From the sequence record NC_054922.1: 64,000 nt of DNA; one strand, given 5' to 3'. The DNA is from Escherichia phage vB_EcoM_KAW1E185. Below, one piece after another: positions 5,872 to 38,897 of this stretch (position 1 is the first letter of the stretch; each line of letters opens with the position of its first letter). The position numbers and the translations under genes were made by a program. The notes under the pieces were generated by a model. That model had not been told where the DNA came from and did no database searches. It saw nothing but the letters and a program-made list of their open reading frames with translations.

Positions 5872-6144
5872 TCAGTTATCTAAGTAAACAGTATGCTTGG
5901 AATACTTTTCCATCATCTTTTTAAATTCATGAATATCTATATAATGACTAGTTAAATCAGCATGATATAAAAAGTCTAAAAACTTTTCATGTGTACTAAC
6001 ATATTCACTTTCATTTAATTCAGAAACATGACTTTCCCAATATCCAACACCAGTTTTATTTGGGAAAAATGAAATTTTCATGTATTGGTCAACATAGAAA
6101 ATGCCATAATTTTCAATAGTAATAGAAATATTAATAAATTTCAT
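5872..6144 (-). CDS. Hypothetical protein (90 aa)
   Basis: ORF track. Confidence 0.45.
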   Translation of the reverse strand: MKFINISITIENYGIFYVDQYMKISFFPNKTGVGYWESHVSELNESEYVSTHEKFLDFLYHADLTSHYIDIHEFKKMMEKYSKHTVYLDN

Positions 6145-18938: not shown

Positions 18939-19027
18939 TTACCAGTTTAATTCTAGTCATCTTTTTGATGGCAGTCCATATAATCTATTTCTGAACTGCC
19001 TTTTTGTCATAGAAGGCCTCTTATGAA

Positions 19028-19996
19028 TTATTTCAGAAGAGTAACCTCAGCGATTTCTTCCCAACCATTTTTGTCGGTCATAATAAAGTCAGCAAGATAA
19101 AGAGCAGTACGCAGTGAAACATTGCGTAAACGATTAACATTGACTTTCATCCATGATAATGCTTTATAAGTTTCTTCATCAGAAAGACCGCGCTTTTGCA
19201 TCATGTCAGTTGAAAGAATAACATCTTCAACCCTGACCATAATTTCTTCATTAGTGTGAACACCCAAATCCAAATAAACTGAGCGGGACACTAATGCTTG
19301 TAAATGTGGAGCAAGTTTAGTACCACGGTCTAATTCGCGGTCAATGTCAACGTTTGTGATAAAAACAATCGTTCCTTTAAATTCAAACTCACGCTCAATG
19401 CCTTTTTCTTCCAAGTAAGAAGATGCAGTGCTCCAGCAGACTTTACGGGTCTCTCCGGTGTCCAGAGCAGCTTTCAGAAGATTAAGAATGTCCATATCAG
19501 AGAAAACATCCACATCATCAATCAAAAGGACAGAATTCTCTTCACGATTATTCCAAAGCTGTTCATAAAGACCGATACCGGAGATTTTACCGTTAATGCT
19601 TTTATATTCAATGTATCCAATATCATTTGCTTTATTTAAAGCTTTATCTAAAGAATACGTTTTACCAATACCCGCCGCACCAGAGATAATTAATGAACGA
19701 ATATTTCCATTAATAATACCATTCGTCATCATTCCCATAACATTAAATCTTTTATTAATGCGGGTTTTCATATCTTCATACGATTCTTTAACTTCTTCAA
19801 CTTTTACACCATCATATGAAATGTCTGATTTGTAAACCCAAACACCGCGACGTTTACCGTCAATTTCAACAAAAACTTTACCATCTCCTTGTGCATCTAC
19901 CGGAGCATTATCTGGGAACCATTCGCCTAAGAGCTCAAAAGTTCCAGAGATTTCTTTACCGAAGTAGATACCCTTATTGATAGTTACAGTTTTCAT
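19028..19996 (-). CDS. P-loop NTPase (AAA-like ATPase), 322 aa
   Basis: Walker A GAAGIGKT, Walker B VLLIDDVD, sensor-like FITN. Confidence 0.65.
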   Translation of the reverse strand: MKTVTINKGIYFGKEISGTFELLGEWFPDNAPVDAQGDGKVFVEIDGKRRGVWVYKSDISYDGVKVEEVKESYEDMKTRINKRFNVMGMMTNGIINGNIRSLIISGAAGIGKTYSLDKALNKANDIGYIEYKSINGKISGIGLYEQLWNNREENSVLLIDDVDVFSDMDILNLLKAALDTGETRKVCWSTASSYLEEKGIEREFEFKGTIVFITNVDIDRELDRGTKLAPHLQALVSRSVYLDLGVHTNEEIMVRVEDVILSTDMMQKRGLSDEETYKALSWMKVNVNRLRNVSLRTALYLADFIMTDKNGWEEIAEVTLLK

Positions 19997-23900: not shown

Positions 23901-23927
23901 AAATGAAAAAAGTCTCCCGAAGGAGAC
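23901..23927 (-). terminator. Intrinsic terminator
   Basis: Minus strand GUCUCC-UUCG-GGAGAC followed by UUUUUUCAUUU. Confidence 0.6.
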
Positions 23928-23932
23928 TAATG

Positions 23933-24319
23933 TTATTCGAGGGAAAGAAGATACTTACTCTGGTAAAACATTCCAGTAATATCATCTATCGTACTTTGAA
24001 TGGCTGGAGGCATTTCTTTATAAATGCTGTTAGATTGGTCTAGTATGCGATCAATCATTTTAATTGTGTCGGTAGGAAGTTTACTGGCATCTGGAATTGA
24101 AGGTGTGTATTTTCTACCAGAATACCCCAAATATTGCTCACCAAATTTATCAATCAAATCTGGCAACTCGGAAAAAATAAAATCGTATGCTTTGTGTCTA
24201 GCATAACTTTTAGTTTCAAAATGTGCAGAATGAAAATAAGCTTGTGCAGCCATTAATAAACCTAAGTATTCATCTGCCTTTGAAGGTTTTCCACTTTGTG
24301 AAAAGTCGCTGAATTTCAT
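23933..24319 (-). CDS. Hypothetical protein (128 aa) immediately upstream of rI on the map
   Basis: ORF track. Confidence 0.5.
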
Positions 24320-24610
24320 TCAGTCTCCAATTTAATGTTCATAATTCTAGCGTATGAATGTGCCATCTCCGCGCCTCGTTCTATACATTCAAAATCAGAA
24401 GAGCACGGGTCATTTTTATAGGTCGTTCTCATAAAACTATAGAATTGTTCAGACGATTCTACGCTTTTATTTTCAAAAAGCATATAAACATGTCTAATAC
24501 CAGATTCCATAAATTTATCAAAATGAGGATCGACATTCGCTTCAATCGGTGGAGATAAAGCAAACGCTAATCCTAAGCATGGCAAATAGTGCCGTTGCTT
24601 TTAAGGCCAT
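24316..24610 (-). pseudogene. rI: Lysis-inhibition regulator rI, apparently disrupted by a +1 frameshift after codon 12
   Basis: ATG at 24610 with SD GGAGG encodes MALKATALFAML then stops after 22 codons; other frame continues GLAFALSPPIEANVDPHFDK...NIKLETE, matching T4 RI as recalled. Confidence 0.6.
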
Positions 24611-24622
24611 AAAGGCCTCCTA

Positions 24623-24835
24623 TCATTTTTGTCCTGTATTTACTTTATGCCGATGCACGGCCTTAACTTTATCAAGGTATTTTTCAAAATTTCGCAATCT
24701 AGTATAGTCTGCCGGAGATTGGTTGAGTGATACTTCTCGACGCAAAGCTGAAATGATATTTCCAACTTCCCTACGAATTTCATCTAATTGAAGAACAGTA
24801 AGATTGCGAAGTTGCTTTTCAGTTAATTGTAGCAT
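24623..24835 (-). CDS. Hypothetical protein (70 aa)
   Basis: ORF track. Confidence 0.45.
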
Positions 24836-24877
24836 ATATACCCCTTTAGTTAGATAAACCTATTTATAACTTTTGCA

Positions 24878-25459
24878 CTAACCGAGCTTTTTAGTTAATT
24901 CATTCCAATGTTTTCTGCACAAAGAAACATAAATTTCATCACCAATACAGATTTGATTACCTTCTTTAACTGGTGTTCCATCTTCCATTAATCGAGCTGT
25001 CATAATCGCTTTTTTACCACAATGACAAACTGCCTTTAGTTCAATAAGTTTATCTGCAATCGCTAAAAGTTCTTTAGAACCTTCAAATAATTTTCCAGCG
25101 AAATCAGTCCTTAATCCATAAGCCATAACAGGAACATTATATGTATCAACAATTCGACTCAATTGATGTACTTGTTCAGTTTTTAAAAACTGGGCTTCAT
25201 CTACAAATACGCAATGAATATCTTTTTGTGCTTCAGCCCATTTATAGAACTCGAAAATATCCATATCATCTGTAATAATATTCGCTTCCTGCTTAATTCC
25301 AATGCGAGAAACGACTTCACAGACAGAATCGCGAGTATCAATAGCAGGCTTAAGAACTAATACACTCATTCCACGTTCTTTATAATTATGCGCAGCAGTC
25401 AAAAGAGAAGCAGATTTTCCAGCATTCATTGCTGCATAAGTAAAAATTAAACTCGCCAT
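24878..25459 (-). CDS. tk: Thymidine kinase
   Basis: 193 aa; P-loop NAGKSASLL near N-terminus; C-terminal CxxC pairs. Confidence 0.9.
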   Translation of the reverse strand: MASLIFTYAAMNAGKSASLLTAAHNYKERGMSVLVLKPAIDTRDSVCEVVSRIGIKQEANIITDDMDIFEFYKWAEAQKDIHCVFVDEAQFLKTEQVHQLSRIVDTYNVPVMAYGLRTDFAGKLFEGSKELLAIADKLIELKAVCHCGKKAIMTARLMEDGTPVKEGNQICIGDEIYVSLCRKHWNELTKKLG

Positions 25460-34391: not shown

Positions 34392-34679
34392 AGTATTTCC
34401 TTAGGTTAATTAAGATTTAAAATCCATGAGAGTATTATACTCCGGATAGTTTGTAAACTATTTCAACATCGCCTTTTGCTGCTTTATAACCTTCAGCCCA
34501 AGATATAACCGAGTTTTTATCTGAAGATTCAAATTCTGGCATTGGGCTTTCGCCAATGTTCACACAATATGTTTCTTCATTTTCGTCAAACCAAATAATT
34601 AAAGTAGTCATTTATTTCTCCGTTTCTGTATTTGTTTTGATAAGTCTATAATAACACCGTCCTTGGTGTTTGTACACAA

Positions 34680-34955
34680 TTATTTCATATTATTGAAATA
34701 TTCTTCTGCGATTTCATCGTTATCATGGTAAACTTTAGAAGACAGTTTAACATAACCTTCTGCCGTGAACATATTAATCACAACCTTTACAGTATACCAC
34801 TGACCATCTTCATTACCCATTACTGCGTAAGTTTCAAACATCGGATGATCAGGACCGATAACTTTAATATCATTCACTGTACGACCAAAATCTTCTGAAA
34901 CACATTTCATAAAGAAGTTGAACAGTTCGCCGTAATTATCCATTTCATTCTCCAA
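34680..34955 (-). CDS. Hypothetical acidic protein (91 aa)
   Basis: ORF track; downstream of early promoter. Confidence 0.5.
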   Translation of the reverse strand: MENEMDNYGELFNFFMKCVSEDFGRTVNDIKVIGPDHPMFETYAVMGNEDGQWYTVKVVINMFTAEGYVKLSSKVYHDNDEIAEEYFNNMK

Positions 34956-36412: not shown

Positions 36413-36488
36413 TGGTCGAGGCAGTAGGGATCGAACCTACGACCTAGGACTTAGAAGGTCCTTGCTCTTCCTTCTGAGCTATGCCCCG
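36413..36488 (-). tRNA. tRNA-Arg (anticodon UCU)
   Basis: Hand-folded cloverleaf, 76 nt, encoded CCA; anticodon loop CUUCUAA. Confidence 0.8.
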
Positions 36489-37014: not shown

Positions 37015-37104
37015 TGGCGGAGGCGATAGGATTTGAACCTATGAGTCGCCGGAGCGACTGCCGGTTTTCAAGACCGGTGCATTAAACCACTCTGCCACGC
37101 CTCC
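37015..37104 (-). tRNA. tRNA-Ser (anticodon UGA), long variable arm
   Basis: 90 nt; anticodon loop CUUGAAA. Confidence 0.8.
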
Positions 37105-37110
37105 AAATAT

Positions 37111-37761
37111 TTATATATTGTTAATTTGATTTAGAATTCTTTTTGCTTGAGTATGACTTACGCCAATATGCTTAGCATATTTAGACAATTCGCCACGTTT
37201 AGAAAAATCATATAATTTAGAAATTTCTATTCTTCTTTTTCTTTCATCCGCAGAAACTTTTGCTTCGTTTGCTTTTGCTATTTTACGTTTAGCTTCTTGA
37301 GAATGAGTTTTACCAGCAAAGCCATTCTTCATTAATCCATTTGAAGACCATCCTTTTAATTTTCCGTTAGAATGTGCCTTTTTAACACCCAATGAAATTA
37401 ATTCGCGTTGCTGATCTGTCATAGGATAATTATTTATATGGTCCCATCCACCTTCACCTCCAAGTTTTAAATTATACACATCTGGTCTATTTAAAAACTC
37501 TTCTGTGACAATATTTTTCTCGGCTTCAAGCATAGATTCTTTATCGTCAAAATACTCTAATATTTCTTTAGAAAAATTTTCTATACCATATTTATCTTGG
37601 GCTCTTTTTAATAATTTACCAGAACCCATATATCCATCATCTAAATTTTCGGTAGAATGCACACCAATATAAATTTTATTATTAATTTTATTTGTTATTT
37701 TATAAAGATAAAAATGCATATCAGTCCCTAATAAAGAACTGAGCGTCTCACGACGAGTCAT
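37111..37761 (-). CDS. segB: GIY-YIG homing endonuclease (SegB-like) inserted within the tRNA cluster
   Basis: 216 aa; FYLYKITN...KIYIGV GIY-YIG motif; basic C-terminal DNA-binding tail; flanked by tRNA genes. Confidence 0.8.
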   Translation of the reverse strand: MTRRETLSSLLGTDMHFYLYKITNKINNKIYIGVHSTENLDDGYMGSGKLLKRAQDKYGIENFSKEILEYFDDKESMLEAEKNIVTEEFLNRPDVYNLKLGGEGGWDHINNYPMTDQQRELISLGVKKAHSNGKLKGWSSNGLMKNGFAGKTHSQEAKRKIAKANEAKVSADERKRRIEISKLYDFSKRGELSKYAKHIGVSHTQAKRILNQINNI

Positions 37762-37765
37762 AAAT

Positions 37766-37839
<74 letters not shown>

Positions 37840-38091: not shown

Positions 38092-38607
38092 TTAAAGCAA
38101 ATTAAACATTTTAACGGTCGGCAAAACAATTTCTTCTTCTATATAAGAGTATTTAACACTCTCAACTACACGCAAAAAATCATAATCATAATACTCAGAA
38201 GCATTACCTAAAATATTAATAAGTCCTTCAAGCACTTTATTACCATTCACAAAGAATAAGTCAAATACGCGTTCTTCGTCTTCTTCGGATTTATTACCAA
38301 GGTCAACTTCTATATCAAAGACCTTTTTAATGAATTCTGGATAAAGTTGTTCTGAGAACAGTCCTTCAACCAAGTATTCATAAATAAAAAGCGATTGCTC
38401 GCTGAACAAGCCATTACCACAATAACGTTCAGCTTTAGTACTAGAATGTCTACTTTTAAACTTCTTTAAAAGATATTGAAATTGTAAGATTTCATGCTCT
38501 TCTACGCCAAACAGTGTTTTAGTTTTATAGTTGTCACCATCATTTTCCCAGGTAGTGGCATCAATTACGTAACCCTGTGGAATTGTAGTACCTAAACAAA
38601 TATTCAT
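38092..38607 (-). CDS. Hypothetical acidic protein (171 aa)
   Basis: ORF track. Confidence 0.5.
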   Translation of the reverse strand: MNICLGTTIPQGYVIDATTWENDGDNYKTKTLFGVEEHEILQFQYLLKKFKSRHSSTKAERYCGNGLFSEQSLFIYEYLVEGLFSEQLYPEFIKKVFDIEVDLGNKSEEDEERVFDLFFVNGNKVLEGLINILGNASEYYDYDFLRVVESVKYSYIEEEIVLPTVKMFNLL

Positions 38608-38897
38608 TTGCTCACCATATTAATGTAAGTATATTCAATACATTCAAGACCCAAAGGATTCTTGAAAATATCATATTCAAGAGGACCTTTTTCCGTTTCA
38701 ATAAAGAAATCAAAATTTACTGTATTAAATTTACGGTCTTCCTTCACTAATTTAACCTGAGAAGATGAACGGTCAATGTAAACCTTTTCAACTTCAAAAC
38801 ATGTTAAAATGCCATAATCATCAATCAAGGCTTTAGCTGCTTCTTGATCATATTTATATCCATTTTCAATGGATGATACTTTAGCATAAAGAATCAT
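38604..38897 (-). CDS. Hypothetical protein (97 aa)
   Basis: ORF track; 4-nt overlap. Confidence 0.5.
   Translation of the reverse strand: MILYAKVSSIENGYKYDQEAAKALIDDYGILTCFEVEKVYIDRSSSQVKLVKEDRKFNTVNFDFFIETEKGPLEYDIFKNPLGLECIEYTYINMVSK

Follow-up and report, generated by a model that had tools for sequence, protein, structure and literature searches.

The rI operon

The stretch of DNA analyzed here (the window, 64,000 nt of Escherichia phage vB_EcoM_KAW1E185, NC_054922.1) comes from a T4-like genome that is not T4 itself: The phage is about 96%–98% identical to sequenced Tequatroviruses, and its nearest relative, 303Ecol101PP, is 98.0% identical over 20 kb. The minus strand carries an rI operon in which tk, rI.1, rI, and rI.-1 follow one another in the T4 order, as judged by comparison with the T4 annotation (Table 1). 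The late promoter of this operon is located between tk and rI.1 (PMC2962797), and the late-promoter consensus of T4 is found at that place. A terminator-like hairpin marks the end of the operon; phage Lutter has an annotated terminator at the matching place 3′ of rI.-1. In an operon that begins with a late promoter and ends with a terminator, the gene between rI.1 and rI.-1 occupies the position of a T4-type RI antiholin.

The two neighbors of rI in the operon are intact. The Shine-Dalgarno sequence of rI is the same in T4 and in three other relatives in our alignment. The ATG of rI.-1 overlaps the stop codon of rI (ATGA), and a GGAG of its own precedes rI.-1 by 5 nt. Its translation therefore probably persists despite the frameshift described below, perhaps at lower efficiency.

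Table 1. Features of the rI locus from 5′ to 3′ along the minus strand (positions are those of the window)
Feature	Position	Strand	Remarks
Thymidine kinase gene (tk)	24878-25459	-	First gene in the order tk, rI.1, rI, rI.-1
Late-promoter consensus of T4, TATAAATA	24861-24868	-	From the sequence; between tk and rI.1
rI.1, 70 aa, intact	24623-24835	-	Upstream in the rI operon; PHROG 1826; T4 annotation
Shine-Dalgarno sequence GGAGG of rI	24616-24620	-	5 nt 5′ of the ATG; read directly
Truncated rI frame, 22 codons (MALKATALFAMLRISVCFISTD), then TGA	24542-24610	-	From the sequence and the ORF translation
New heptamer CTT_AGG_A	24571-24577	-	Made by the insertion; Leu CUU, then rare Arg AGG
Extra T (TT vs. 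a single T in relatives)	24575-24576	-	Leu12 CTA becomes CTT+A; +1 insertion
Rest of rI, codons 13-97 and TGA, +1 frame	24316-24573	-	Second half of the signal peptide (GLAFALSPPIEA) and entire periplasmic domain
Private change CAA to CAT (Q84H) in rI	24358-24360	-	Outside the functional T/RI interface
rI.-1, 128 aa, intact	23933-24319	-	Downstream of rI; PHROG 858; T4 annotation
Terminator-like hairpin and T run	23911-23928	-	Directly after rI.-1; end of the operon

Identity of the interrupted gene

An earlier note on this DNA had assigned the gene that starts at the ATG at 24610 to rI, partly from a match to the N terminus of T4 RI. The match holds: Translation of T4 RI from NC_000866 gives MALKATALFAMLGLSFVLSPSIEANVDPHF...NIKLETE, and the first 12 residues encoded from the ATG at 24610 (MALKATALFAML) match it exactly. 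The assignment itself, with its GGAGG, is borne out by the sequence and by three kinds of protein comparison. Pfam family PF24205 (Antiholin; cut-off 27) is matched with 73.8 bits by the 89-aa ORF in the +1 frame and with 81.3 bits by the 97-aa RI obtained when the frame is repaired. Both pieces of the interrupted gene belong to this family and to PHROG 1246, "lysis inhibition" (1.1e-34), and residues 25-97 match the antiholin chains of PDB entries 6psk and 6psh (E about 1e-45), with 72 of 73 residues identical to the crystallized T4 antiholin domain. The match to PF24205, together with that of residues 25-97 to the two structures, argues against a chance pattern.

Functional residues are also retained. 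We checked the list of interface-1 residues (Table 2 of PMC11413866) against the translated sequence: The T-binding residues F30, M34, Y42, S53, E54, F56, and Y57 are all intact in the +1-frame translation, and the conserved cysteines of RI are present. What is missing is a single ORF that would carry both the signal peptide (residues 1-24) and the periplasmic domain, as the frame breaks after codon 12. As written in the record, and read at face value, rI is a pseudogene of the T4-type RI antiholin family.

A single extra base in codon 12

The two-frame layout was found much as the earlier note had described it. The frame from the ATG at 24610 reads MALKATALFAML, then RISVCFISTD, and ends after 22 codons at a TGA (24544-24542). 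The remainder of RI lies in the +1 frame, in an ORF of 89 codons (24585-24316) that reads ...LGLAFALSPPIEANVDPHFDKFMESGIRHVYMLFENK...NIKLETE and stops at a TGA (24318-24316); this frame contains ...L GLAFALSPPIEANVDPHFDKFMESGIRHVYMLFENK...NIKLETE.

We aligned the lesion with T4, 303Ecol101PP, vB_Eco_CP, slur03, RB55, TB004, and REP4. At this site the alignments differ by one added base and nothing more: The relatives have ATGCTAGGATT where the window has ATGCTTAGGATT, i.e., exactly one extra base, so that ATG CTA GGA TTA becomes ATG CTT AGG ATT A. The earlier suggestion of a single extra nucleotide around CTT-A-GGA is thus confirmed in kind, with the correction that the added base is a T rather than an A. 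The simplest description of the lesion is a duplication of the single T of Leu codon 12 (CTA to CTTA). Its context is T to TT, outside any homopolymer run. Taken at face value, the sequence blocks the synthesis of exported full-length RI.

There is one further private change in rI, Q84H, which is shared by none of 501 phage records and is absent from IMG/VR. Alanine substitution of the neighboring residue (Y86A) has no effect (PMC11413866). The 9.8 kb around rI contain nine changes that are absent from a nine-genome panel, five of them nonsynonymous, although at least one of the nine is not private in wider data. Against this background Q84H is unremarkable, and we reject the idea that the insertion and Q84H together reflect selection or decay specific to rI.

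Distribution of the insertion

The insertion is private to this phage in all the data we searched. A 101-nt query centered on the lesion matched 503 phage records, none of them identically; the best 58 align at 100 of 101 positions, and the gap is the sole difference. A 30-mer that spans the insertion, searched for exactly, occurs nowhere in IMG/VR, in JGI metagenome contigs, or in GTDB genomes; as a control, the corresponding wild-type 29-mer pattern matches three IMG/VR contigs. Exact look-up of the frameshift-specific 89-aa ORF likewise returned no match. The insertion is also absent from 10 further contigs (ENA, Logan, and NCBI), picked via a neighboring 153-aa protein that they have in common and each at most 97.8% identical to the window; in all of these, a single frame encodes an RI of 97 residues. 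The comparison with relatives that the earlier note had proposed therefore finds the same two-frame arrangement in none of about 500 phage records, three further collections, and 10 contigs.

Two apparent disruptions in relatives were dismissed on inspection. TB004 appeared in tblastn to have an N-terminally disrupted rI, but its DNA is intact, and LR990704.1, in which no rI gene had been called, also has an intact rI.

Real mutation or sequence error

The earlier note had offered two explanations for the interrupted frame, a rapid-lysis genotype and a sequencing error. Both are apt, and sequence alone cannot separate them. A singleton allele is what would be expected of a recent laboratory or private mutation and of an error alike. 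We nevertheless favor, with a probability of roughly 0.75, a genuine +1 frameshift that leaves RI null: a classical rI rapid-lysis mutant that would represent a new allele in a new isolate. For the base being real in total, whether the allele is null or leaky, our confidence is slightly higher still.

The quality of the rest of the window carries this preference. In a tblastn comparison of 113 ORFs of 303Ecol101PP with the window, a frameshift interrupts just one shared gene, rI, which is hence the sole broken gene among the roughly 100 shared with the nearest relative. The incompletely matched ORFs are rI, ORFs at or beyond the ends of the window, two absent genes (one of them a homing endonuclease), and a variant ORF at 5872-6144. 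Positions 38630-64000, some 25 kb of structural genes for the baseplate and neck, align to 303Ecol101PP with zero gaps. From the absence of any other disruption in ~55 kb of coding sequence, we calculate that the 95% upper bound for indel errors is about 5e-5 per base, so that rI, with its 294 nt, would be expected to contain at most 0.016 of them. The indel scan and the ORF-by-ORF tblastn together lead us to reject an indel-prone assembly, and because no other shared gene is broken in 64 kb, a real mutation is favored.

Under an artefact, the phage would have the normal CTA and an intact rI of 97 codons, and the extra T would be an error of the consensus; we regard this as unlikely, though it is the most serious of the competing explanations. 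It would account for an allele that is a singleton across every collection searched, and removal of one base does yield an RI the same as that of many relatives except for Q84H. Single-base indels are, moreover, the commonest assembly error, and the frameshifts recorded in rI of two other phages, RB55 and REP4, fall in an A5 run, a plausible place for errors. Yet the artefact would have to be the only one of its kind in 64 kb, 25 kb of which are gap-free, and its context, T to TT, is neither a long homopolymer nor a known error motif, so that it is not a typical site of base-calling error. The remaining net frame-changing indels relative to 303Ecol101PP, bar a single 1-nt indel near the C-terminal end of the ORF at 5872-6144, are all intergenic, which is the pattern of real variation filtered by selection rather than of random base-calling error.

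The exception, at position 5906 in the 3′-terminal part of a DUF7200 gene (5872-6144, minus strand), alters about the last 10 residues and leaves the first 80 identical; the products are 90 aa and 89 aa long, and both versions are open.

The rI gene is a classical target of mutation. Mutants of the r type arise at frequencies of 1e-3 to 1e-4 and form bigger plaques, with near-complete lysis at the edge, that are usually called sharper-edged than those of the wild type (PMC6832632). Being so conspicuous, such a mutant would readily be picked during plaque purification. In broth competition the wild type beats r mutants (PMC6832632), so the allele would not be expected to persist in nature. The sequences themselves establish the lesion, its uniqueness in the data searched, the identity of the gene, and the intactness of all other shared genes; we infer that the phage genome really contains the extra T, that the resulting allele is null, and that it became fixed in this manner.

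The junction created by the insertion

The insertion places the Leu codon CUU directly before the rare Arg codon AGG, in a heptamer (CUU_AGG_A) that resembles the +1 frameshift site of yeast Ty1. If the ribosome slipped +1 here, from CUU to UUA, the next codon in the A site would be GGA and the wild-type RI sequence would be regained exactly; the junction peptide of the slipped RI precursor would be ATALFAMLGLAFALSPPIEA. The insertion could thus be real and yet leaky, with peptidyl-tRNA-Leu slipping on the heptamer during a pause of the ribosome at the rare AGG to give a few percent of wild-type RI and partial lysis inhibition.

Such decoding has precedents. In yeast Ty1, CUU_AGG_C needs no further signal to direct +1 frameshifting at about 40% (PMC5009743). 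A +1 insertion in rpoB of Escherichia coli is suppressed at 5% by seven nucleotides, CCC_AGG_C, again on their own (PMC7022156). As in these two sites, the rare AGG of the window follows a P-site codon that might re-pair, and a shift would restore the frame; it differs from them in the repertoire of P-site tRNAs, in the presence of a phage tRNA-Arg(UCU), and in lying in a nonessential gene, so that nothing selects for suppression. AGG is indeed rare in the genes of the window, at 2.0 per 1000 codons (37 of 18,437), and a phage tRNA-Gly(UCC) serves the +1-frame codon GGA. The in-frame pair CTT-AGG is found zero times in the 18,437 codons of the window's ORFs, where 0.7 would be expected, a difference of no statistical weight.

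Several features count against appreciable leakage. The two-frame arrangement is kept in no relative, so the site is not a programmed one, and the sequence upstream (UUUGCCAUG) is without the Shine-Dalgarno-like stimulator that prfB has; on these two grounds we reject a programmed +1 frameshift of the Ty1 or prfB type, even with CUU_AGG_A present. Besides the host tRNA-Arg(CCU), tRNA-Arg(UCU) also reads AGG, and the phage gene for it (36413-36488) should relieve starvation for this codon. The main reader of CUU in E. coli, tRNA-Leu(GAG), would form a mismatch with the third base of UUA. It is also relevant how much RI is needed. Reconstitution of lysis inhibition without phage required relatively high levels of RI, which is unstable (PMC11413866), and a few percent of it may fall short.

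Since CUU_AGG_A is not conserved, the junction appears Ty1-like with, at most, adventitious leakiness. We consider it improbable, clearly more so than a sequence error, that this lesion partially cures itself, giving a "weak r" phage in which residual lysis inhibition would be set by the supply of host tRNA-Arg(CCU) and phage tRNA-Arg(UCU).

Predicted consequences for lysis inhibition

Newly made RI carries a Sec signal peptide at its N terminus. This peptide is slowly cleaved off after Ala24, and export by it is needed for the periplasmic or membrane localization of RI; the uncleaved, membrane-anchored precursor is active (PMC8385771, PMC11413866). Precursor and mature RI both bind the periplasmic domain of the holin T via interface 1 (F30, M34, Y42, S53/E54, F56, and Y57) and block hole formation, whereas RI that is free in the periplasm undergoes rapid degradation (PMC8385771, PMC11413866). 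The earlier note had argued that RI cannot function without its N-terminal "signal-anchor" segment. These studies uphold the need for the segment and replace the term: It is a slowly cleaved signal peptide, and under either name RI needs it to get to the periplasmic domain of T. The gene is absolutely required for lysis inhibition (PMC2962797).

With the frameshift taken as genuine, ribosomes starting at the normal ATG would make a 22-residue peptide and stop. The RI domain is missing from this product, as is the second half of the signal peptide. The domain itself (residues 25-97) would lie in the other frame, behind half a signal peptide and without an ATG or GTG codon or a Shine-Dalgarno sequence from which to start. 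No RI would then reach the periplasmic face of the membrane, and the holin T would not be held closed after superinfection. Without exported RI there is no lysis inhibition: The phage is predicted to lyse its host at the normal 20–25 min and to form the large, sharp-edged plaques of the r phenotype.

An internal restart would avoid this outcome. Initiation at the TTG at 24585, in the RI frame, would produce MPCLGLAFALSPPIEA-N..., with a shortened signal peptide that might still be exported; the 89-codon ORF retains the hydrophobic stretch LGLAFAL and the IEA|N cleavage site (PMC8385771). We give this scheme almost no weight. The TTG has no Shine-Dalgarno sequence (the upstream sequence is AACGGCACTAT), and in the stretch that opens after the TAA at 24603-24601 no further ATG, GTG, or TTG precedes the lesion. 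The TTG lies inside the translated 22-codon ORF, which means that termination and reinitiation cannot feed it, and a product begun there would have lost Lys4 of the n-region and about half of the hydrophobic core.

Comparison with known rI mutants and contingency loci

The closest counterparts of the frameshift, if it is genuine, are the rI members of Hershey's T4 r mutants (for example, T4 rI r48). Their lesions, too, hit rI at its place in the operon and remove full-length RI, and the outcome is that predicted here: loss of lysis inhibition, with plaques that are large and sharp (PMC6832632, PMC2962797). The phage and the allele are different ones.

Single-base frameshifts in rI are also found in two other sequenced Tequatroviruses, RB55 (KM607002.1) and REP4 (OQ174503.1); a sample of about 90 Tequatrovirus records yielded these two in addition to the window. 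In RB55 (L014, 401-693) an A5 run has become A4 (–1), and rI is annotated as a truncated "lysis inhibition" CDS of 228 nt; in REP4 (L029, 301-595) it has become A6 (+1), with an annotated CDS of 201 nt. The A5 run, at codons 63-65 (TAT AAA AAT), is slippage-prone and late in the gene, whereas the lesion of the window affects a single T in codon 12 and cuts the domain off from its signal peptide. The A5 run appears to be either a frameshift hot spot of rI or the site of a recurrent homopolymer error.

Contingency loci of phages, such as rIIA of T4, rely on homopolymers of at least 6 (bioRxiv 10.1101/2025.10.21.683753). There, as in the window, a frameshift turns a lysis-inhibition gene off. We reject a contingency locus for rI of the window: A change of a single T to TT involves no repeat of 6 or more and no hypermutable sequence, so reversible switching at high frequency is not expected.

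Other differences from the nearest relative

A 216-aa ORF at 37111-37761 (minus strand) encodes a GIY-YIG, SegE-like homing endonuclease with a NUMOD3 motif (Pfam) and fills a 655-bp segment between tRNA-Ser (37015-37104) and tRNA-Gly (37766-37839), where 303Ecol101PP has tRNA-Pro. ARAGORN finds 10 tRNAs in the window, with no tRNA-Pro among them, and 11 are annotated in 303Ecol101PP. It looks as if a seg-type mobile endonuclease has displaced a tRNA gene here. Conversely, a 239-aa "putative endonuclease" of 303Ecol101PP (L004, 13522-14241) is absent from the window at about 19012-19047; its only weak match in the window is to the seg-like ORF (37447-37677, 37% identity), and a gap of this kind is typical of presence/absence variation of homing endonucleases. 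Short stretches at 34407-34680 and 38111-38630 have no aligned counterpart in 303Ecol101PP, which in turn has a 111-aa ORF (L003, 31754-32089) that is missing from the window. Judged from these alignments, the e-segB/tRNA region is a site of local mosaic replacement.

Significance

The lesion is of an ordinary and well-known type and teaches nothing new about lysis inhibition itself. Only the Ty1-like junction is a small curiosity, of interest for adventitious +1 frameshifting in phage-infected E. coli. Frameshifts in rI do recur in deposited Tequatrovirus genomes, and such genes should be flagged by curators, not annotated as encoding truncated "lysis inhibition" proteins. If the base is real, this phage is an r mutant, which would lyse fast, form large clear plaques, and give smaller bursts at high cell density; its growth curves, titers, and therapeutic behavior would then not be typical of wild T4-like phages.
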